Source: Bacteroidota bacterium (lineage in GTDB: Bacteria; Bacteroidota; Bacteroidia; AKYH767-A; 2013-40CM-41-45). From it: a stretch of 55,137 nucleotides of DNA. Positions 18,717 to 55,137 of the stretch are shown here, piece by piece. The DNA is taken from positions 1 through 55,137 of the forward strand of contig JAYTXY010000056.1 of NCBI GenBank assembly GCA_043742705.1, written 5' to 3'. Made by a program: the position numbers and the translations under genes. Positions within the stretch are counted from its first letter, which is position 1; the number at the start of each line of letters is the position of its first letter. The notes below the pieces were generated by a model that was given only the letters and a program-made list of their open reading frames with translations, ran no database searches and had not been told where the DNA came from.

Positions 18717-19709
18717 TTAGATTTTCGCCAACGAACTTTTCAAATGATTAATTACCTCAATCTCCATCGCATCCACGTTATTTTTATCTGCGAGGTAACA
18801 GGAAACCCAATCAGTCAGATTAATTAAATAGATACTGCGTTCAAGCTGCGAATTTCCTTTCGACCAAAGTTCATAAACATGAGGAGTGTATTTCGGAAAA
18901 ACTTCTTTGCAGATTTCAATGCGTGTCTGCGTACGTGAGTAATCTGTTTTATTACGAAGAAGAATTACTCCCAGATCACTCCATCCTCCTGCCCAACCCA
19001 CCAGTTCATTGTGGTTCATTTCAGGAATGATGTGATGCCAGCACAATACCTTGCTGTTTTCATTCAACTGCTGGCGAAACCGCGTTGCTACACCGTTGTA
19101 GCCATCGACAGCATAGATGACAGGAATTTTCTTGTACAGGAATTCAGCCATCTTCATCGCTTCTTCTTTGATGTTTTTTTCTTCCGAAGTGATTAATTCA
19201 ACAGCGCCTTTCAATTGCGCTTTAAACGAATCACCAATCAGTTTCATTCCGTGAAGAACAAAAAATAATTGTGTTAATGAATATCCGAGGCAGGCGCGTG
19301 GAGGCATTCCACCGGGAATAGTGATCAGTCCGCAGTTGTTGGCTTTTGCCATTTCGGAAATTTTTCCTCCGGAAGAAATGCAGACAATCGTTGCTTTCGC
19401 CTTCAAAGCAGCCTCCATGGCCTGGATGGTTTCTTCCGTGTTTCCTGAATAAGAGGAAACAATCACCAGCGTATTTTCATTTACAAAAGCCGGAAGAAAA
19501 TAATCTTTGTTGACAAGAATCGGAACCGAACATTCCTGCGCTACAATTTCTGAAACGATTGTGCCGCCAATGCCGGAACCGCCGAGTCCTGTAATCATAA
19601 CATTGCGGATTGCGGATTGCGGATTTTGGATCGTAGATTTTCCTCCGATTTCAATCGCTTCGCGAAGTTGATTGGGAAAATTTTGCACTAATTGTTTCAT
19701 CTCACTCAT
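18717..19709 (-). CDS. Bifunctional phosphoglucose/phosphomannose isomerase (SIS domain family)
   Basis: 330 aa. Contains [11 protein letters not shown] and SYSGNTEET (SIS motifs) and a C-terminal PGI/PMI-type domain. Confidence 0.85.
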
Positions 19710-19789
19710 GTAAAAAGATTTGTTTTAATTTCAGGGGGCAAAGATAAGAATTATGAGGGGTTTAACAGCAGGTCAACTATCTCAAATCT

Positions 19790-19819
19790 ATCCGCAATTT
19801 TAGATTCGAAATCCGCAAT
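19790..19819. repeat. atccgcaat x2 direct repeat in the PGI-PMI/lysS divergent region
   Basis: Copies lie at 19790-19798 and 19811-19819. They are complementary to (attgcgg)x3 at 19602-19622 inside the PGI/PMI CDS and closely resemble the right arm of the 32552-32625 hairpin. Confidence 0.7.
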
Positions 19820-31885: not shown

Positions 31886-32551
31886 TCAATTTTCTGCAAT
31901 AGGTTCCTGCAAAGAAGTTTCTACGGATGAAGTCGGCTCAGCATCTTCCGCCTTCTTCTCATGCTTGTAAAACTTCTTCTGAAAAATTAAGAGCAGAGCA
32001 ACGCCTACTGTAATGGAAGAATCTGCTATGTTGAAGACTTCACGGAAAAACGAAAACTGTTGTCCGCCCCAAACAGGAGACCATTGCGGGAAATGCCCAT
32101 CAAACAACGGGAAGTAAAACATGTCCACTACTCTGCCATGAAATAAATGCGAGTAACCGCCTTCAGCGGGAAAAAGTGTTGCCACTCCTGCATTGCTCTC
32201 TGAAAACATCAGTCCATAAAAAATGCTGTCAATAATGTTTCCGATGGCGCCTGCAAACACAAGTGAAAAACAAACGATCAATCCTTTGTGAGCATTGGTT
32301 TTGATAAGCCGCAAAAGATACCAGCCAATTCCGAAAACCAGAACAATGCGGAAAATGCTGAGAAAAAGTTTTCCAAAACTTCCGCCAAACTCTAGGCCGA
32401 AAGCCATGCCGTTATTTTCCGTAAAGTGAATGAGAAACCAATTACCAAAAACATGAAACTCCTGGCCGAGGTACATGTGCGTCTTGATCCAGATTTTAAC
32501 GACCTGGTCAATGAGCAGAATCAAAAAAATAATAAGGAGTGATTTTCTCAA
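31886..32551 (-). CDS. lspA: Lipoprotein signal peptidase II
   Basis: Contains ENNGMAFGL and FNIADSSITVG motifs and 4 TM segments. The start appears to be TTG. The C-terminal ~30 aa tail is extra. Confidence 0.88.
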   Translation of the reverse strand: MRKSLLIIFLILLIDQVVKIWIKTHMYLGQEFHVFGNWFLIHFTENNGMAFGLEFGGSFGKLFLSIFRIVLVFGIGWYLLRLIKTNAHKGLIVCFSLVFAGAIGNIIDSIFYGLMFSESNAGVATLFPAEGGYSHLFHGRVVDMFYFPLFDGHFPQWSPVWGGQQFSFFREVFNIADSSITVGVALLLIFQKKFYKHEKKAEDAEPTSSVETSLQEPIAEN

Positions 32552-32625
32552 TTTCGAATTGCGGATTTTAAATTGCGGATTGAGGAGATATTAATTCGCA
32601 ATTTAAAATCCGAAATCCGCAATTG
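32552..32625. repeat. Intergenic hairpin with duplicated aattgcggat(ttt) units (lspA start / dksA-like stop)
   Basis: The left arm is cgaattgcggattttaaattgcggatt. The right arm is aattcgcaatttaaaatccgaaatccgcaatt. They are imperfect reverse complements, and the loop is gaggagatatt. Confidence 0.65.
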
Positions 32626-32640
32626 GTTGAAATGAAAAAC

Positions 32641-33435
32641 TCAGTCTCTGTATTGATTGAGCTTCGCTTCAATACTTTGCGTGGTATGCGGAACAGCGCG
32701 CAAACGTTCTTTCGGAATCAACTTGCCTGTTACGCGGCAAATTCCGTAGGTTTTATTTTCAATTCTCACCAATGCGTTTTCCAATTGCTCAATGAATTTC
32801 CGCTGGCGGCTTGCAAGCTGTCCTGCTTCTTCCTTTGCAAGACTGTCTGAACCGTCTTCCAACATTTTAAATGTGTTGGCTGTATCGTCAGTGCCATGCT
32901 CATTCGCACTGGTAAGTTGTGCCTGAAGAGTAACGAGTTCTTTTCTTGCTGCTTCCAGTTTTTTATTAATGATGGCTCTGAATTCTTCCAGTTCCATATC
33001 AGAATATCTTGTCTTGTTCGGATCTGCCGGAGTATGCTTTCTGATGATCCGAACGTTTTCACGTTCTCTCTTGTATGGTATTTTACCAACAGTTACCGGT
33101 GGTTTTGCAGGCGCAACGGTTGCAGGTTTTTTAACAACTACTTCTTTTGGTGCAACCTGTTTTGGCGCAGCTGCTTTTGCAACAGGCTTCACTTTTACAG
33201 GTGCTGCTTTCTTAACTACTTTTTGTTTTGCTTTCGCAACAGGTTTTGCCTTTGCCTTTGCCTTTGCTTTTACTTTTACTTTTGGTTTAGCTTTCGCAAC
33301 AACTTTAGCTTTGGGCTTGGCTTTGGATTTAACTTTTGTTTTCACCGCAACTTTTTTCTTCACTACCTTTTTAGCAACAGCTTTTTTTGCCGGCTTTGAT
33401 TTCGGTTTCGCTTTCGACTTGTTCGTTTTTTTCAT
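32641..33435 (-). CDS. DksA/TraR-family protein with a ~135-aa N-terminal histone-H1-like Lys/Ala/Pro/Val-rich extension
   Basis: The C-terminal 125 aa (KTRYSDMELEEF...IENKTYGICRVTGKLIPKERLRAVPHTTQSIEAK) match the Bacteroidota DksA/TraR protein usually found next to ileS. The N-terminus consists of KAKPKAK/AKKVVKK repeats. ATG at 33435 is preferred over TTG at 33441. Confidence 0.8.
   Translation of the reverse strand: MKKTNKSKAKPKSKPAKKAVAKKVVKKKVAVKTKVKSKAKPKAKVVAKAKPKVKVKAKAKAKAKPVAKAKQKVVKKAAPVKVKPVAKAAAPKQVAPKEVVVKKPATVAPAKPPVTVGKIPYKRERENVRIIRKHTPADPNKTRYSDMELEEFRAIINKKLEAARKELVTLQAQLTSANEHGTDDTANTFKMLEDGSDSLAKEEAGQLASRQRKFIEQLENALVRIENKTYGICRVTGKLIPKERLRAVPHTTQSIEAKLNQYRD
33248..33283. 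repeat. In-frame hexamer microsatellites inside the Lys-rich extension of the DksA-like gene
   Basis: (gccttt)x3 then (ttttac)x2, encoding KAKAKAKAKVKVK on the minus strand. Confidence 0.8.
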
Positions 33436-33478
33436 AAGCAAAAGGGGTTGATTAAATACTGCAATCTCACTTTACAGG

Positions 33479-36400
33479 TCAATTTACCCGCAAAGCTTCG
33501 TTCTTTTTAATGGATATAGTTGTTCGTAAATCTTCGTCAACCTCAATGTTGACAGCATCTTTGTCATTTAATGAATCAACAAATTCAAGCGAAGTCGCTA
33601 AAATTTCCGCGCAAATATATACTTTATTATTTAATATGGAGGTCTTGATGGCTGCGTGATTCAGGACTTTCAGGTCGATTTTATCGGTCACTTCAAAACC
33701 CTTGTCTTTTCGTAAATTCTGAATCCTGTTAACGAATTCCCGGGCTATTCCTTCTTCCCGAAGTTGCTCATCAATTTTGATGTCGAGCGCAACAGTCAAC
33801 TTGCCTTCCGTGGCGACTTCCCATCCCGGAATGTCTTCGGAGAGGATTTCAACGTCTTCTTCTGAAAGAGATACAATTGTACCGTTCACCTGCAGATCAA
33901 ATTTTTTCTCCGCTTCTAACTGAAGAATATCTTCCTGTGAAAAATTCTGAACAGCTGCGGCAACATCTTTCATCAGTGCTCCGACTTTTTTTCCAAGTAC
34001 TTTAAAATTAGGTTTGATTTTCTTGACAAGAATTCCGGAAGTGTCTGTGATGTATTCAACTTGCTTCACATTTACTTCTGCAAGAATTAATTCTTTTATC
34101 GAATCTACTTTCGACTGAAACGATTTATCCAAAACAGGAACAAGGATTTTATTCAAAGGCTGACGAACACGGATATTTACTTTCTTTCGTAAAGACAATA
34201 CCATCGAAGAAATTTTCTGCGCCAGTTCCATTCGTTCTTCAAGCAACTTATCAATCAGTTGATCGTTGCTCACAGGAAAATCTCCAAGATGAACAGAAGA
34301 AACATTTTTCCGCTTTGCGATGTTGTTCAGATCCGTAAACAAACGATCGGAATAAAACGGTGCCACCGGTGACATCAGCAATGCAATGCTTTCAAGACAT
34401 GTGTACAACGTTTGGTAAGCAGCAGTTTTATCTTCTGAATAATCTCCTTTCCAGAATCTTCTCCGGCACAAACGAACGTACCAATTACTCAGGTGCTCCG
34501 TTACAAAATCCTGGATGGCGCGTGTAGCTTTTGTGGGTTCGTAATCTGCATAGCATTCATCCACGAATTTGATGAGTGAATTCAACTCTGATAAAATCCA
34601 TCGATCAATTTCAGGTCGTGCTGAAACAGGAATTTCCTTTTCAGCATACGCGAATCCGTCAATGTTTGCATACAATGCAAAAAAGGAATACGTGTTGTAA
34701 AGTGTTCCGAAAAATTTTCGCTGCACTTCACCGATTCCATCCACATTAAATTTCAGGTTGTCCCACGGCTGCGCATTGCTGATCAGGTACCATCGTGTTG
34801 CATCAGGTCCGTATTTCTCAATCGTCTCAAACGGATCAACAGCATTGCCTAAACGCTTCGACATTTTATTTCCGTTCTTGTCGAGTACCAAACCGTTACT
34901 CACCACATTTTTGAAAGCAACGGAATCGAACAACATCACAGCAATCGTATGAAGTGTGAAAAACCATCCGCGTGTCTGGTCAACTCCTTCAGCAATAAAA
35001 TCTGCGGGGAAAGCCCCTCCCTGACCCTCCCCAAAAGGGAGGGAACGAGGTTCTCCCATATAATGGTATTGTGCATACGGCATGGCACCGCTGTCGAACC
35101 ACACATCGATGAGATCCGCCTCACGGATCATTTTCTTTCCTGAATCAGAAACCAAAATAATGTTGTCGACATAAGGACGATGTAAATCAAAATCCGGTTT
35201 TGATGCATCCACATGTTCAAGATGAGATTTGTCCATGAACCCTGCAGCGATGGATTTCTCAATTTCCTTTTTCAATTCTTCAATGGAGCCAATGCATTTT
35301 TCTTCCTTCAAATCTTCGGTTCTCCAGATCGGAAGCGGAATTCCCCAAAAGCGTGAACGGGATAAATTCCAGTCGACCAAATTTTCAAGCCAGTTTCCAA
35401 AACGACCAGTTCCCGTGGACTCAGGTTTCCAGTTAATGGTTTTATTAAGTTCAATAAGTCTGTCCTTCGCTGCCGTTGTTTTGATGAACCATGAATCCAG
35501 CGGATAATAAAGAACAGGTTTATCAGTGCGCCAGCAATGCGGATAGCTGTGTTCGTACTTCTCAACTTTGAATGCTTTGTTTTCTTTTTTCAGTTTGATG
35601 GAAATGCGTTCATCCACCGATAAATATTTTTCTCCGCCTTGTTTCTTTCGTTCTGCTTCCTTTTCTTCTTCTGTTAAGTATTGTTCTTTCACATACTCAT
35701 TCGCAAAGTCTGTTACTTCAGAAACGAAGCGTCCTTGCTTGTCAACGAGCGTGAGTGAGCCTAAACCATTTTGTTTTGCTGTGCGAAAATCGTCTGCGCC
35801 AAAACTCGGAGCGATGTGAACGATTCCTGTTCCGTCTTCTGTCGTTACAAAATCTCCAAGCACCACTTTGAATGCTTCGCCATCGTTCGGCTTCACATAC
35901 GGAAGTAATTGATCGTAACGAATTCCTTCGAGTTCTTTTCCTTTAAATTCTGCAATGACTCTATATGGTATCAGCTTGTCGCCTTCTTTGTAATCTTCCA
36001 GTTTCAATTCAACATTCTTCTCTGAAAAATATTTTCCAAAAAGATCATTCGCAAGAATAACCGTGATCGGTTTGTGCGTATATTGATTAAACGTTTTTAC
36101 AGCGACATACGGAATGTCTTTCCCAACAGCAAGTGCAGTGTTCGAAGGTAGCGTCCATGGTGTGGTCGTCCAGGCAAGAAAAAATAAATCTCCTTCCAGC
36201 CCAACCAACTGAGAACTGTTGACTACAGATCGCACCTGAAATTGCGCAACAACGGTTGTATCTCTCACCATTTTGTACGTTCCCGGCTGATTCAGTTCAT
36301 GCGAACTCAATCCTGTTCCTGCTGCAGGAGAATATGGTTGAATGGTATATCCTTCGTACAACAATCCTTTCTTGTAAAGTTCCTTCAGCAAATACCAGCA

Positions 36401-36877
36401 GGTTTCGATGTAGTTGTTTTCAAACGTCACATACGGATGTTCGAGATCAACCCAATAACCCATCTTACGTGTGAGATCATCCCACACGTTTTTATATTTC
36501 ATGACTTCCTTGCGGCAAGCCTTGTTATAATCTTCAATCGAAATTTTTTTTCCGATGTCTTCCTTACGAATGCCCAATGTTTTCTCCACACTCAGTTCAA
36601 TCGGTAACCCGTGTGTATCCCATCCGCCTTTGCGTTTCACCTGGAAACCTTTCAATGTTTTGTAACGGCAGAAAATATCTTTGATCGCACGCGCCATCAC
36701 GTGATGAATGCCGGGCAAACCATTCGCTGATGGCGGACCTTCATAAAACGTAAAAGCAGGTTTACCTTCGCGGGTCGTCACACTTTGCTCAAAAGTTCTT
36801 TCCTTGTCCCATCGCAGCAATTCTTCTTTGCCGACAGAACCAAGATCAAGCTGTTTATATTCTCTGTACTTACTCAT
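33479..36877 (-). CDS. ileS: Isoleucine--tRNA ligase (long, type 2)
   Basis: 1132 aa. Contains PSANGLPGIHHVMARA (HIGH region), the editing CP1 domain, KMSKRLGN (KMSKS) and FPADFIAEGVDQTRGWF. Confidence 0.95.
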   Translation of the reverse strand: MSKYREYKQLDLGSVGKEELLRWDKERTFEQSVTTREGKPAFTFYEGPPSANGLPGIHHVMARAIKDIFCRYKTLKGFQVKRKGGWDTHGLPIELSVEKTLGIRKEDIGKKISIEDYNKACRKEVMKYKNVWDDLTRKMGYWVDLEHPYVTFENNYIETCWYLLKELYKKGLLYEGYTIQPYSPAAGTGLSSHELNQPGTYKMVRDTTVVAQFQVRSVVNSSQLVGLEGDLFFLAWTTTPWTLPSNTALAVGKDIPYVAVKTFNQYTHKPITVILANDLFGKYFSEKNVELKLEDYKEGDKLIPYRVIAEFKGKELEGIRYDQLLPYVKPNDGEAFKVVLGDFVTTEDGTGIVHIAPSFGADDFRTAKQNGLGSLTLVDKQGRFVSEVTDFANEYVKEQYLTEEEKEAERKKQGGEKYLSVDERISIKLKKENKAFKVEKYEHSYPHCWRTDKPVLYYPLDSWFIKTTAAKDRLIELNKTINWKPESTGTGRFGNWLENLVDWNLSRSRFWGIPLPIWRTEDLKEEKCIGSIEELKKEIEKSIAAGFMDKSHLEHVDASKPDFDLHRPYVDNIILVSDSGKKMIREADLIDVWFDSGAMPYAQYHYMGEPRSLPFGEGQGGAFPADFIAEGVDQTRGWFFTLHTIAVMLFDSVAFKNVVSNGLVLDKNGNKMSKRLGNAVDPFETIEKYGPDATRWYLISNAQPWDNLKFNVDGIGEVQRKFFGTLYNTYSFFALYANIDGFAYAEKEIPVSARPEIDRWILSELNSLIKFVDECYADYEPTKATRAIQDFVTEHLSNWYVRLCRRRFWKGDYSEDKTAAYQTLYTCLESIALLMSPVAPFYSDRLFTDLNNIAKRKNVSSVHLGDFPVSNDQLIDKLLEERMELAQKISSMVLSLRKKVNIRVRQPLNKILVPVLDKSFQSKVDSIKELILAEVNVKQVEYITDTSGILVKKIKPNFKVLGKKVGALMKDVAAAVQNFSQEDILQLEAEKKFDLQVNGTIVSLSEEDVEILSEDIPGWEVATEGKLTVALDIKIDEQLREEGIAREFVNRIQNLRKDKGFEVTDKIDLKVLNHAAIKTSILNNKVYICAEILATSLEFVDSLNDKDAVNIEVDEDLRTTISIKKNEALRVN
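35012..35059 (-). repeat. In-frame palindromic insert-like segment in ileS encoding MGEPRSLPFGEGQGGA
   Basis: The coding strand reads tccctcccttttggggagggtcagggaggggct (stem ccctccc/gggaggg). The 33-nt core at 35012-35044 is very similar to 54619-54650 in aspS. Confidence 0.6.
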
Positions 36878-36986: not shown

Positions 36987-37064
36987 ATCTACGAATTACG
37001 AATTGATACTAATATACCTATCAAAGCGCATTCGTAAATTCCGACAAATTCGTAATTCGTAGAT
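36987..37064. repeat. Cargo-less hairpin element with perfect 18-bp tacgaat-unit arms, copy A
   Basis: atctacgaattacgaatt (36987-37004) and aattcgtaattcgtagat (37047-37064) are exact reverse complements. The 42-nt loop gatactaatatacc...gcattcgtaaattc is shared with copy B. Confidence 0.85.
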
Positions 37065-37109
37065 TGGATGTCACGTATCAAATTGGGATACTGCAACCAA
37101 CTTAAAATC

Positions 37110-49751: not shown

Positions 49752-49797
49752 GAATGAATCTGAATTATTCGGAACGAATGTACGAATTGAATTTTCA

Positions 49798-49876
49798 CTC
49801 TACGAATTACGAATATATACTAATATACAAATCAGGTGCATTCGCAAATTCAAAACTGATTCACAATTCGCAAACC
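49798..49876. repeat. tacgaat-unit hairpin element, copy B (degenerate right arm)
   Basis: tctacgaattacgaat-atatactaatatac-aaatcaggtgcattcgcaaattc aligns with copy A over about 60 nt. The arms tacgaattacgaat (49801-49814) and attcacaattcgca (49859-49872) match 11/14. Confidence 0.75.
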
Positions 49877-52423: not shown

Positions 52424-52441
52424 AAGTAGTATAAAAGATTG

Positions 52442-52495
52442 TTTATTGGTTCACTAGTTCATTGGTGGGAATACAAATGAACTAATGAACTAAAT
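52442..52495. repeat. Hairpin with tagttcattgg-type arms between the convergent DUF885 gene and pgk (likely a bidirectional terminator)
   Basis: tggttcactagttcattgg pairs with caaatgaactaatgaacta (about 16/19). The loop is tgggaata. Confidence 0.65.
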
Positions 52496-52497
52496 TA

Positions 52498-53709
52498 CTA
52501 CTCAACAATCGCTTTTACTCCGGGCAAAACTTTCCCTTCGAAATATTCCAGCAATGCTCCTCCACCGGTGGAAACATAACTTACTTTATCCGCCAATCCA
52601 AACTTGCTGATGGCAGCGGCAGAATCTCCTCCTCCTATTAGTGAGTAAGATCCTTTTGATGTTGCTTCCGCAATGGCTTCAGCCATTTTACGTGTTCCGT
52701 TTTCAAATTTTTTCATTTCAAAAACGCCCATCGGTCCGTTCCACAAAATAGTTTTCGAATTTTTTATCACATCACAAAATTCAGCAACGGCTTTTGGACC
52801 AAGATCCAATCCCATCCAGCCTGCTGGAATATTGTTGTTTTCTGCGACTGATGTGTTCGCTTCATTATCAAATTTATCTCCGATAATAGAATCAAACGGA
52901 AGAATAATTTCGCAATTTTTCTCCTCTGCTTTTTCTAACAGTTGTTTTGCGAGACCGAGTTTATCTTCCTCCACCAATGAATTTCCGACCTTCCCTCCCA
53001 ATGCTTTAAAGAAAGTGTAAGCCATTCCTCCGCCAATGATGATGTTGTCGGCTTTATCCAAAAGGTTTTCGATGATCAATATTTTATCAGACACTTTTGC
53101 TCCGCCCATTACAGCCGTGAACGGATGTTGTGCATTGTAAATAACCTTGTCGGCATTTGTCAATTCACTTGCCATGAGATAACCGAAGAACTTTTTTTCA
53201 GGAAAAAATTTTGCAATCACTGCCGTTGAAGCATGTGCACGATGAGCTGTTCCGAATGCATCATTCACATAAACGTCTCCATGAGCTGAAAGCTTTTTCG
53301 CAAACCCTTCGTCTCCTTTTTCTTCCTCTTTGTAAAAGCGGAGATTTTCCAATAACAAAACTTCTCCGGCTTTTAAATTGTGTGATAAATTAAATGCTTC
53401 GTCACTGATGCAGTCATTCGCAAACTTTACTTCGCGCCCAAGCAACTCTGCTGTTTTTTTAACGGTATGATTCAATGTGAATTTTTGAAAATCAACGGTA
53501 CCGTCTTCTTTCAATTTCTTCAACGGCCTTCCGAGATGGCTCATTAGTACCACACTTCCACCATCTTTTAGAATTTTGTTGATCGTTGGTAATGCACCGC
53601 GAATGCGGCTATCGTCTGTAACGTTGAATTGCTTATCAAGCGGAACGTTGAAGTCAACACGAACCAGGGCTCTGTGTCCCGAAAAATTATATTGATCGAT
53701 GGTTTTCAT
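52498..53709 (-). CDS. pgk: Phosphoglycerate kinase
   Basis: Contains [20 protein letters not shown] and [10 protein letters not shown] motifs. Confidence 0.95.
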
Positions 53710-53779
53710 TAGTTCATTGGTTTATTAGTTCATTGGTTCATTGGTAATCTTCACCAACGAACTAATGAACTATTGAACT
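53709..53779. repeat. Hairpin of the same tagttcattgg family between the aspS stop and the pgk start
   Basis: ttagttcattggtttattagttcattggttcattggt pairs with caccaacgaactaatgaactattgaact (about 17/20 in the core). The loop is aatctt. It abuts the pgk ATG. Confidence 0.65.
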
Positions 53780-53781
53780 GA

Positions 53782-55137
53782 TTACTTTACGTTAACGTTG
53801 ATACCCAATTCCTTCAACTGATCAGTATGAAGCGATGACGGAGCATCAATCATCACATCTCTTCCTGAATTATTTTTCGGAAAAGCAATGTAATCGCGGA
53901 TTGAGTCAGAACCTCCAAACAACGAACAAAGTCTATCAAAGCCAAAAGCAATACCTCCATGCGGTGGTGCTCCGAATTCAAATGCATTCATTAAAAAACC
54001 GAATTGGCTTTGCGCATCTTCCGGAGTAAACCCAAGAATGGAAAACATTTTTTGTTGCAACTCTTTGTTGTGAATACGAATAGAGCCTCCGCCCACTTCT
54101 GTTCCATTGATCACCATGTCGTACGCATTCGCTCTCACTTCACCCGGATTTTTTCCGAGCAATGCAATGTCTTCCGGTTTCGGTGACGTAAACGGATGAT
54201 GCATAGCATGCCAACGTTTTGTTTCATCGTTGTATTCCAGCAATGGAAAATCAAGCACCCACAATGCTTTGTACTCATCTTTGTTTCGCAAGCCAAGACG
54301 GTTTCCCATTTCAAGGCGAAGCTCACTCATCGCTTTGCGGGTTTTATTTTTTTCTCCGGCTAAAATCAAAATTAAATCTCCTTGCTGTCCTCCGCAGTTT
54401 TCAAACCATTTTTTTTGAGCGTCTGTGTCATAGAATTTATCTACTGATGATTTCAAAGAATCATCCGTGTTCCATCGTGCATACACCAATCCCGTTGCTC
54501 CAATCTGCGGACGCTTTACCCATTCTGTCAATTCATCCAGTTGTTTGCGTGTATACTCCACACATCCTTTTGCACAAATTGCAACAACTAATTCTGCATC
54601 ATCAAAGACTTTGAAACCAGCCCCACCTAAATCCTCCCCAAAGGGAAGGACTTTTCCGCCAGCGTTTACAGGTGGTTTCAATTCAACCAACTTCATCTCG
54701 AAACGAATGTCAGGCTTATCGTTTCCATATTGTTTCATTGCATCTTCAAACGTCATGCGCGGTAAAGAAGGAACATCCACTCCTTTCACTGTTTTAAAAA
54801 GATGACGAATCATTCCTTCAAATGTTTGAAGAATATCTTCTTGCTCAATAAAACTCATCTCGCAGTCAATCTGTGTGAACTCAGGTTGACGGTCGGCTCG
54901 CAAATCTTCATCACGAAAACATTTCACAACCTGGTAATATTTGTCCATTCCCGCCACCATCAATAACTGTTTAAATGTTTGGGGAGATTGCGGCAGCGCA
55001 TAAAATTCCCCCTGGTTCATGCGAGAAGGAACTACAAAATCACGCGCTCCTTCCGGAGTTGATTTAATAAGTACGGGAGTCTCCACTTCAACAAAATTTA
55101 TGGCGTTGAGATAATTTCTTGTTTCAGCAGCAACGCG
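53782..55137 (-). CDS. aspS: Aspartate--tRNA ligase, C-terminal ~450 aa; the N-terminus lies beyond the window end
   Basis: The frame stays open to nt 55137 (upstream reads ...[21 protein letters not shown]). Contains [18 protein letters not shown] (motif 2), GGGSIRIH and GIAFGFDRL (motif 3). Confidence 0.93.
54616..54678 (-). repeat. In-frame palindromic insert-like segment in aspS encoding [21 protein letters not shown]
   Basis: The coding strand reads ccacct...tccttccctttggggaggatttaggtggggct. There is an inner palindrome tccttccc/ggggagga and an outer 6-bp inverted repeat ccacct/aggtgg. The core at 54619-54650 matches 35012-35044 in ileS. Confidence 0.6.

Follow-up and report, generated by a model that had tools for sequence, protein, structure and literature searches.

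Two short in-frame inserts in aminoacyl-tRNA synthetase (aaRS) genes, one in ileS and one in aspS, are analyzed here in a 55,137-nucleotide stretch of DNA from a Bacteroidota bacterium (contig JAYTXY010000056.1 of assembly GCA_043742705.1), referred to in its entirety as the window. We propose with modest confidence that both segments are relic copies of a Bacteroidota-wide, G/C-rich repeat of 33 to 36 nt, and that they most likely derive, with the nuclease lost, from DUF559 cassettes that are bounded by this repeat and aimed at conserved positions in essential genes. In-frame repeats resembling repetitive extragenic palindromic (REP) sequences or Rickettsia palindromic elements (RPEs) and homing cassettes are kinds of element already known. 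What is new here is the repeat-bounded, in-frame arrangement of DUF559, no description of which was found in a search of the literature on this family.

In-frame inserts in ileS and aspS

The ileS gene (33479..36877, minus strand) encodes a class I isoleucyl-tRNA synthetase (IleRS) of 1132 aa, as assigned from its open reading frame (ORF) and translation, Pfam matches to tRNA-synt_1, Anticodon_1, and DUF5915, and homologs annotated as isoleucine--tRNA ligase. An earlier note on this DNA had reported a palindromic, in-frame LPFGEGQGGA segment at 35012-35059 of this gene, and its sequence and coordinates were correct. At this position (35012..35059, minus strand), comparison with orthologs identifies the variant linker MGEPRSLPFGEGQGGA, with 16 aa in place of the canonical 11-aa PFENKEEFxKA between HY and FPADFIAEGVDQTRGWF. 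The context is YAQYHY-MGEPRSLPFGEGQGGA, directly before the invariant FPADFIAEGVDQTRGWF block (HY-MGEPRSLPFGEGQGGA-FPADFI), and the sense-strand DNA reads ATGGGAGAACCTCGT TCCCTCCCTTTTGGGGAGGGTCAGGGAGGGGCT TTCCCC.

The 33-nt repeat unit within this linker, TCCCTCCCTTTTGGGGAGGGTCAGGGAGGGGCT (35012..35044, minus strand), is read as SLPFGEGQGGA and belongs to the Q variant of what is termed here the GEG subfamily (nhmmer E=1.4e-10 against a profile of genome-scan copies). It is interpreted as a solo right terminal repeat. Its identity to the phylum consensus is 29/33, which has P=6e-5 when synonymous codons are resampled under the codon usage of the window, where GGG makes up 9% of Gly codons and GAG 22% of Glu codons.

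Folding places a hairpin at 35025..35043 (minus strand), with CCCTCCC (35043-35037) paired to GGGAGGG (35031-35025) across the loop TTTTG; this stem, described in the earlier note, is recovered in both DNA and RNA folds. As single-stranded DNA, the region pairs CCCTCCC with GGGAGGG and GGGG with CCCC at -11.8 kcal/mol (z=-2.3; 3/200 shuffles as good). The second pairing, GGGG CTTT CCCC, had been claimed alongside the first and does appear in the DNA fold, but it is incidental, since it borrows the host codons TTC CCC and is lost in an 85%-identical ortholog reading TTT CCG. The ileS copy also contains a predicted G-quadruplex motif, GGGGAGGGTCAGGGAGGGG (35014..35032, minus strand, mRNA-sense), which in a regular-expression scan is the sole (G≥3 N1-7)x4 match on both strands of the window, whereas the aspS copy has GG runs only and does not reach this definition. 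In the RNA of the ileS repeat, GGGGAGGGUCAGGGAGGGG, the G-quadruplex and the hairpin are alternative predicted folds.

The aspS gene (53782..55137, minus strand), whose 5' end is cut by the window edge, encodes a class II aspartyl-tRNA synthetase (AspRS), assigned by translation and Pfam matches to tRNA-synt_2 and GAD; a full-length protein identical to it is available (P0121, 595 aa). Comparison of filled and empty alleles (the latter from L124) reveals an expanded linker at 54616..54678 (minus strand), in which 21 aa stand in place of the NDVTKGKN of the empty ortholog. The GAD insertion domain, whose Pfam match begins at residue 325, follows shortly after this linker. Within the linker is a 35-nt repeat unit of the GED subfamily, AAGTCCTTCCCTTTGGGGAGGATTTAGGTGGGGCT (54619..54653, minus strand; nhmmer E=1.2e-10), with 30/33 identity to the phylum consensus (P=7e-4 in the same resampling) and 31/33 identity to the copy in another AspRS (L126) that is only 75% identical as protein. 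A possible remnant of a left terminal repeat, AACCACCTGTAAA (54664..54676, minus strand), is roughly complementary to TTTAGGTGG of the right repeat; direct reading and analogy with L126 and with the IcmF-like fusion L080 hint weakly at this assignment. The DNA fold of the whole aspS insert is not significant (z=-0.87), and strong RNA hairpins are predicted, at -24.8 kcal/mol for ileS and, for a second fold, at -27.5 kcal/mol.

The 10-aa peptide of the aspS copy (54619-54648) shares its frame with that of ileS, and the two copies agree at 8/10 aa, 23/30 nt, and 24/33 nt. Default repeat finding and mismatch searches with 39-nt and 19-nt cores missed the pair, which was revealed by translating aspS. 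The two genes had been said to hold a very similar 33-nt core in the same frame; the frame is indeed the same, but the window copies fall into two subfamilies, ileS into GEG and aspS into GED, and their mutual DNA similarity is only moderate. Across all pairs of window proteins, this is the only pair of 10-mers with at least 8/10 identity between non-paralogous proteins. As about 0.9 such pairs would be expected by chance by our own estimate, and as the DNA identity given the peptides has P=0.07, the pair alone is weak evidence and does not stand out from a codon-shuffled background. Each copy compared with the phylum consensus does stand out, and because the codons match that consensus beyond synonymous resampling, the signature is carried by the DNA and not by the peptide alone.

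A repeat family across the phylum

One genome per GTDB species was scanned for the exact 22-base pattern CCYTTTGGGGAGGRTNNNGGNGGGGC, and at least 120 stretches with at least 130 repeat copies matched, including in-frame copies in housekeeping genes. The matches listed are nearly all from Bacteroidota, spanning Bacteroides, Prevotella, Flavobacteriia, Cytophagales, Chitinophagales, Saprospiraceae, and Prolixibacteraceae; those from elsewhere are one Ignavibacteriaceae contig and one metagenome-assembled genome (MAG) labelled Hyphomicrobiales, which has many copies. The pattern was present in only 9 stretches of viral contigs, so phages are not an obvious main reservoir. Rfam contained no real family for the repeat, giving only sub-threshold chance matches to miRNA and lncRNA models, and literature searches returned no description of it, nor of any such repeat for Bacteroidota, in line with the earlier note, which knew of none for Bacteroidota aaRS genes.

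The conserved unit is just 33 to 36 nt long, with flanks unrelated between copies, and consists of an 8-bp hairpin, CCCTCCCC-TTT-GGGGAGGG, followed by the G-tract GGGGTGGGGCT. The consensus of the GEG subfamily is TCCCTCCCCTTTGGGGAGGGTTGGGGTGGGGCT, of which the ileS copy is the CAG variant, and that of the GED subfamily, to which the aspS copy belongs, is AAAGTCCTCCCTTTTGGGGAGGATTTAGGAGGGGCT. In the 91 GEG copies listed, the variable triplet is TGG in 28, TAG in 24, CGG in 16, TTG in 14, and CAG in 5. As 99 of the 130 copies listed lie outside long ORFs, and as TAG places a stop codon in 24 of the 91 GEG copies, the repeat unit is one of DNA and not a peptide motif.

The other 31 of the 130 lie inside ORFs (≥50 codons on either side) in all six frames (s0, s1, s2, o0, o1, o2), and the peptides they encode include LPFGEG.GGA (11 copies), SPLGRVGVGL (6), and the reverse SPTPTLPKGEG (7), plus others. 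Their hosts, assigned by Pfam or conserved motifs, include ValRS (twice), LeuRS (twice), and IleRS at two sites among the synthetases; MetH, LpxB, an IcmF-like mutase, peptidase U32, proline racemase, and several restriction-modification enzymes; and the membrane proteins TonB receptor, DUF554, and cytochrome c assembly protein. Class I aaRSs host 7 of these 31 intragenic copies among the matches listed, and aaRS genes make up about 1% of a genome by our estimate. Inspection of the consensus shows that every one of the six frames is open apart from a stop in the variable triplet, that the length is a multiple of three, and that every frame is Gly/Pro-rich, which together make the unit unusually tolerable in genes.

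Several genomes show further arrangements of the repeat. In the MAG labelled Hyphomicrobiales (SRP141376_co4_174; L004, L033, L049, L052, L055, L061, L066, L073, L083, L101, L106, and L122), the many copies belong to a longer repeat of about 150 aligned nt, in which ACCCCRCCCC-GG-CCCTCCCCAAGGGGAGGG, a 17-nt spacer, and CCCTCCCTTTGGGGAGGGTTAGGGTGGGGC form a left-end and right-end pair without an ORF, between A/T-rich flanks. Since no other host agrees with this label, the MAG may have been mis-binned. An uncultured Bacteroides sp. MAG (SRP199465_co2_553) has many copies genome-wide and tandem arrays with a period of 59-60 nt (L010:632-1546 and L042:1170-1373); CRISPR was considered for these arrays and rejected, since the intervening 27 nt that would be the spacers are themselves repeated. 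GED copies also occur directly upstream of genes, or in their first 20-40 codons, in Flavobacteriia and others (L024, L046, L118, L012, L048, and L087). Cultured isolates with copies near a gene start or in frame are Polaribacter porphyrae NBRC 108759 (L046), Autumnicola edwardsiae F297 (L048), and Arenibacter sp. P308M17 (L016, in LeuRS). One of the GED copies close to a gene start reads ...GGAGGATTTAGGAGGGGCT-ATG, and the AGGAGG of the unit resembles a Shine-Dalgarno sequence, of which Bacteroidota are largely devoid. A ValRS (L099:324-3230) has two different hairpin-type peptides back to back (SPTQTLPKGEDSPHSFKEGQGVV) after the conserved WYLEMIKP, in the anticodon-binding region.

Nuclease cassettes bounded by the repeat

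IleRS proteins of other lineages link the repeat to a nuclease. In P0011 (L001), in a member of the Prolixibacteraceae (L026), and in a member of the Flammeovirgaceae (L058), an in-frame DUF559 domain (PF04480/PF18741) lies exactly at the site of the window's ileS insert, and the inserted sequences end ...SLPFGEG[RW]GGA(L)-FPADFI. At least 10 IleRS have DUF559 at this site with the right repeat 0-3 codons from FPADFI (P0011/L001, L026, L058, P0241, L139, L140, L142, L143, L161, and L179; P0241 is an IleRS fragment), and the window copy occupies the same codon junction as these right repeats. The site is occupied in Prolixibacteraceae, Flammeovirgaceae, and several metagenomic contigs, and variant and canonical alleles are interleaved at 80-85% identity.

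At the left junctions of P0011, L026, and L058, the repeat recurs as a degenerate reverse complement. The stem in L058 reads CCCTTTCC/GGAAAGGG in place of CCCTCCCC/GGGGAGGG; the sequence has changed and the pairing is preserved. In L080, the nuclease is situated between a reverse GEG unit on the left and a forward GED unit on the right, and the inverted-repeat architecture was read in L080, L139, L143, L144, and L145. One metagenomic IleRS (L140:3300-3420) has a complete cassette in which DUF559 is followed by the right-end repeat TCCCTTCCCCTTGGGGGAAGGGTTGGGGATGGGGC and then, in tandem, by a second, outer right repeat, TCCCTCCCTTTGGGGGAGGGTCAGGGAGGGGCT, which is 32/33 identical to the ileS unit of the window in proteins only 61-64% identical. 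This looks like what re-invasion of a footprint-bearing allele would be expected to leave.

With a profile built from these DUF559 domains, 80 metagenomic loci were retrieved. In 68 of the 80, the nuclease is read continuously with the sequence to its left and right, within an ORF of ≥260 codons. Because the profile by which the loci were ranked had been seeded with in-frame domains, this proportion overstates the general frequency. Hosts were assigned from flanking conserved motifs, with ten confirmed by Pfam, and comprise IleRS (6, same site), RecG (about 11), MetH (about 20, at two sites), MetRS (5), LeuRS (3), ValRS (3), and IcmF/MeaB (4); the nuclease also occurs in adenine deaminase, a DegT aminotransferase, and a polysaccharide-synthesis protein. 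Where the junctions were read, no more than a few codons separate the right repeat from a highly conserved host motif (such as FPADFIAEGVDQTRGWF, PPHVLVMTATPIPRT, ATVKGDVHDIGKN, VWFDAPIGY, TTRPET, or GITGTGGAGKS). Inverted repeats, about 30 nt long and with AGCCCC... and ...GGGGCT outermost, flank the cassettes, and flank complementarity exceeds z=3 over shuffles in 34 of the 53 cassettes tested.

The IleRS and IcmF cassettes read retain an intact DUF559 core (ADF...E[IV]DG..H...RFTN), with the D, ExD, and H columns invariant in our alignment (A3); in one LeuRS the core has decayed to EFSG. Pfam found no intein domains in the host ORFs scanned, and Rfam intron families had no match in L026 or L058 at E<=1. 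As neither intein nor intron was detected and the inserts are open into the downstream host sequence, they are most simply taken to be translated through.

Two further observations concern DUF559 hosts. A Lutibacter LeuRS (L063:5287-7998) combines a decayed in-frame DUF559 (EFSG for E[IV]DG) with a separate GED repeat about 430 codons downstream, before the KMSKS region, and an Arenibacter LeuRS (L016) has a repeat at the same place as this downstream copy. For some free-standing-looking DUF559 proteins of 123-133 aa (P0251, P0256, and P0261), JGI gives the label 'methylmalonyl-CoA mutase' or 'methionine synthase'; they are probably pieces, produced by gene calling, of cassettes that lie in frame in those hosts.

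Filled, empty, and variant alleles

The canonical IleRS linker, [WY]H[YFW]PFENKEEFxK[AS]-[FY]PADFI, is present in about 100 of the 120 best homologs, bearing out the shorter HYPFENK-type linker given in the earlier note, and is represented by HYPFEHEEVFRES in Thermus thermophilus IleRS (1ILE). The canonical site reads …CAYTAYCCNTTYGARAAY…TTYCCNGCNGAYTTYAT…, and the 85%-identical P0002 reads HWPFEHVEEFKRS. Variant linkers occur in about 20 of the 120, such as HYMGEPNSLPFGEGQGGA (P0003, 85% identical), SLPFAPGQERA, TAPFGATPA, SAPFGKGEHQA, the WGLD...FPFG.GW.GA type, and that of P0011 with about 175 extra residues. In a rough neighbor-joining tree with the loop masked, in which resolution is poor, variant and canonical alleles are interleaved within the 80-85% identity clade of the window, and the canonical P0002 is the sister of the window IleRS.

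A similar pattern is seen for AspRS, where 106 parsed homologs comprise 56 with a minimal 16-residue segment, 26 with 20 residues, and 24 with 21-30 residues and hairpin-type peptides (SPLLWRGAGGEA, TPDPSPKERG, LS[ED]GEG, and the window type). The window-type peptide recurs in P0122 (85% identical) and P0229 (75%). By comparison, P0123 (84% identical) is empty, reads NDVTKGKN, and stems from the sequencing run that also yielded the ileS-positive P0003. Orthologs free of the element, with a shorter and different linker, are thus available for both genes. The three AspRS genes with a GED unit (those of the window, L127, and L126) agree with one another at 30-32/33 positions of it, with synonymous sites elsewhere in the gene near saturation. 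A second hairpin family, TCCCCTCTCCTTTGGAGAGGGGCCGGGGGTGAGGCT, has inserted with the same architecture in L128 in the forward orientation and in L129, at the same loop, in reverse. That a single loop has received separate insertions in either orientation points to mobile DNA rather than a selected peptide.

Structural context was considered with AlphaFold2 models, which from alignments of 41 and 36 sequences reached pLDDT 66 and 72, respectively. In the AspRS model, residues 299-319 are coil at the boundary between the catalytic and GAD domains, with pLDDT <50 at 302-312 and a mean of 57 at 311-320. The IleRS site can be regarded as permissive, since orthologs accommodate a whole folded domain of about 110 aa there. 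The sequence AAAGTC beside the aspS copy was considered as a target-site duplication and rejected, as it belongs to the element consensus.

Proposed origin of the inserts

If the two segments do derive from DUF559 cassettes, the repeat would form the inverted ends of a small cassette of the homing type, composed of a left repeat, a nuclease ORF without its own start or stop, and a right repeat. Such a cassette would invade conserved sites of essential genes and, judging from its open frame, be translated through with no splicing out. The repeats would encode flexible Gly/Pro-rich linkers, through which the nuclease could loop out. The ileS copy would be a right-end footprint left after nuclease loss, and the aspS copy a miniature derivative, with a degenerate (and doubtful) left end and an intact right end in the linker before the GAD domain. 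The window copies are probably useless to this genome and would persist because nothing short of an exact deletion that keeps the frame could rid an essential gene of them.

A wider proposal may be advanced more tentatively, and we place it slightly below even chances. Bacteroidota could harbor a large class of homing elements, undescribed so far, that lie in frame and do not splice, each with a DUF559 ORF lacking start and stop and with G/C hairpin inverted repeats of about 30 nt that double as Gly/Pro linkers. These would invade conserved sites of essential genes (IleRS, MetRS, LeuRS, ValRS, RecG, MetH, IcmF, and others), leave a looped-out domain in the mature enzyme, and pass through a cycle of nuclease decay, footprint, and re-invasion. 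The window inserts would then be footprints, and thousands of solitary 33-nt repeats would be solo ends or miniatures.

A number of results weigh against an origin from DUF559 cassettes. DUF559 lies within 1.5 kb of only 5 of the 130 repeat copies listed, all five being in-frame cases, so most copies may spread by another route; the idea that the repeat is a general 3' flank of DUF559 genes was rejected as a rule on the same count. No AspRS with DUF559 was found among 120 homologs, and the closest protein-search homologs of the insert are mostly free-standing genes of 120-140 aa. The window itself has no DUF559, so it is not a member of the homing-endonuclease cassettes, and its copies would have to be nuclease-less derivatives. 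The ileS allele is not a clean insertion at the DNA level, 33 nt of host sequence being replaced by 48 nt; comparison of filled and empty ileS alleles gives no recognizable left repeat, and no target-site duplication is evident in such comparisons for ileS or aspS. A profile search of 183 kb from the window and close relatives recovered only the ileS and aspS copies and no intergenic copy, so in the DNA sampled the repeat is confined in this lineage to these two genes. Codons are conserved between orthologs to only a modest excess (P=0.01-0.1), the insert site of the IleRS model falls within a long low-confidence stretch that is uninformative there, and the seeding of the DUF559 profile, noted above, inflates the share of in-frame loci. 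Nuclease activity, homing, and translation of the fusions are themselves predictions from sequence.

Alternative explanations

The alternative that survives best, though we consider it unlikely, is that the repeats are REP-like or resemble miniature inverted-repeat transposable elements (MITEs), and are moved in trans by another enzyme, for example a Y1/RAYT-type (REP-associated tyrosine transposase) or DDE transposase. The aaRS copies would then reflect tolerance of a Gly/Pro-rich, frame-preserving insert, and the DUF559 cassettes would be separate elements that land beside hairpins or capture them. The solitary nature of most copies, far from DUF559, fits this explanation, as do the REP-like size and palindromy of the unit and the many composite units of left repeat, 17-nt spacer, and right repeat without ORF in one MAG; REPs within ORFs, including tRNA-synthetase genes, are moreover documented in Proteobacteria (PMC3733652). 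It fits less well that the consensus lacks the GTAG or CGTC tag of the known REP superfamilies and that no transposase was noticed near the copies, though no systematic search was made. An inverted repeat pair flanks DUF559 in many independent hosts, with stems that differ between cassette families and keep their pairing, and this, together with the codon junction shared by the window's ileS copy and the cassette right repeats, favors the cassette origin.

It is quite improbable that the segments are instead selected features, such as a Gly-rich loop with a function in the protein or an mRNA hairpin or G-quadruplex that tunes translation, and not selfish relics. Selection could account for the conservation of the element DNA, which exceeds that of synonymous sites elsewhere in the gene (in aspS, 9/11 identical codons among identical residues against 45%, P=0.014; other pairs, P=0.04-0.11). 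It would also accommodate the sole G-quadruplex motif of the window lying on the sense strand of the ileS copy, and the strength of both RNA hairpins. Nevertheless, close orthologs do without the inserts, the unit is mostly intergenic and occurs with stop codons, in any frame, and in either orientation, and unrelated hairpin families or decayed versions sit at the same loops in other lineages.

That the segments are ordinary, vertically inherited, lineage-specific loop variants, with the hairpin and the ileS/aspS resemblance coincidental in Gly-rich coding sequence, is very improbable and is effectively refuted by the genome-scan copies and the codon test. The chance expectation for the peptide pair, the pairwise P value of its DNA, and the insignificant aspS fold, all given above, are what such coincidence would produce. 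They are outweighed by the codon-level match of both copies to the consensus of more than 120 unlinked copies with GGG and GAG codons that are rare here, by the near-identical copy in the distant L140 IleRS, and by the interleaving of variant and canonical linkers in the IleRS tree. An assembly or binning artefact, conceivable for a metagenome-type contig, has a negligible probability, as the same inserts are present in assemblies made independently, namely in P0003, which is from a Logan run, in P0121, which is from Logan contigs and 100% identical to the window's AspRS, in P0122, and in two ENA cluster members.

Comparison with known systems

RPEs are elements of Rickettsia of about 100-150 bp in families RPE-1 to RPE-8, inserted where the host protein is exposed at its surface, and to our knowledge no autonomous RPE form carrying a nuclease has been described. 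The Bacteroidota repeat resembles them as a dispersed palindromic family with in-frame intragenic copies, a preserved frame, a presumably functional host, and intergenic copies. It differs in its G/C-rich unit of 33-36 nt and its nearly exclusively Bacteroidota hosts, the comparison being by description and not by RPE consensus sequence. The RPE-like reading of the earlier note is therefore upheld as regards dispersed, in-frame palindromes, and is extended to a nuclease cassette, but the unit is not of RPE size. RPEs are likewise dispersed, in frame in essential genes and also intergenic, as cited in PMC3733652.

The length of the conserved unit is closer to that of a REP or a solo terminal repeat than to that of RPEs. 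REPs inside ORFs are described as G/C-rich palindromes of 20-40 nt, mostly extragenic, in GTAG/CGTC-tagged superfamilies, with intragenic copies in tRNA-synthetase genes of Xanthomonas, Erythrobacter, and Sphingopyxis (Di Nocera et al. 2013, PMC3733652). The repeat described here shares the imperfect palindrome of this size, the high copy number, and the mostly extragenic location. Unlike REPs, neither subfamily consensus contains the tag and no RAYT link is known, and the repeat is further set apart by the G-tract at its tail, by a sequence conserved across the phylum, and by serving as the inverted ends of nuclease cassettes. As to the terminal inverted repeats of MITEs, composite units occur in one MAG and the cassettes have inverted ends; the ileS copy of the window has a single end, and the left remnant in aspS is doubtful.

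Inteins, too, occur in frame at conserved sites of essential proteins, with full and nuclease-less mini forms coexisting and the same site occupied in distant hosts. The DUF559 inserts differ from them in having no Pfam splicing domain in the hosts scanned and in junctions (e.g., ...GGA|FPADFI) that by our reading are not splice-like, so that the insert is presumably retained. The mobile GC clusters of yeast mitochondria are also short G/C-rich palindromes in an A/T-richer genome and can sit in frame in var1; we know of no flanked nuclease cassette for them. They are organellar and their sequences are unrelated.

The nearest precedent for a non-splicing homing insert open in the host frame is the 'ShiLan domain' of a phage methylase, an in-frame, non-splicing insertion that conceals an HNH endonuclease (Arsenault et al. 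2025, PMC11855218). Shared with it are the frame open in the host, the lack of intein or intron features, the predicted looping out, and an endonuclease of homing type. The HNH gene of ShiLan, however, has a start and a stop of its own and is read in another frame, whereas DUF559 is in the host frame, is bounded by hairpin inverted repeats, and is found in numerous housekeeping genes of cells. The PD-(D/E)xK fold brings together Vsr, DUF559, and I-Bth0305I (PMC3424549), so a homing endonuclease of this fold acting on conserved positions in essential genes has precedent. Vsr-like homing endonucleases include the fractured-gene endonucleases (Dassa et al. 2009, PMC2677866) and I-Bth0305I (Taylor et al. 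2011, PMC3239194); these sit in group I introns or between the halves of split inteins, neither of which was detected in the DUF559 hosts scanned.

Implications

If the proposed origin is correct, it would explain the recurrent odd Gly/Pro-rich peptides (LPFGEGWGGA, SPLGRVGVGL, and SPTPTLPKGEG) and nuclease domains in core Bacteroidota enzymes. Such inserts would affect gene calling, as with some DUF559 ORFs of about 120 aa to which JGI gives the names of metabolic enzymes, as well as alignments and marker-gene phylogenies. They would add a route by which selfish DNA can reside in essential genes without splicing, beside inteins, introns, RPEs, and phage ShiLan, and would give DUF559, a large family of unknown function, a testable role. 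The insertion sites and linkers in aaRSs, RecG, and MetH could serve protein engineering as naturally permissive positions, and the repeat could be used as a phylum-wide sequence tag to trace horizontal exchange of gene segments.

Other repeats in the window

A degenerate tandem repeat with a 6/12/18-nt period lies at 33217-33336, inside the ORF at 32641-33441 (minus strand) just downstream of ileS. It encodes a Lys/Ala-rich tract (AKAKAKAKP...), and the syntenic gene of relatives contains a zf-dskA_traR domain. The window also has short A/T-rich repeat families (ATTGCGGATTGCGGATTTT, TCTACGAATTACGAATT, and GTTCATTGGTTTATTAGTTCATTGGT), unrelated to the G/C-rich element, which form direct and inverted pairs mostly at or between ORF ends. 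These are found at 19609-19639, 19785-19819, and 32549-32625; at 36987-37066 and 49796-49834; at 52441-52506 and 53704-53749; and at 322-357 and 758-793.

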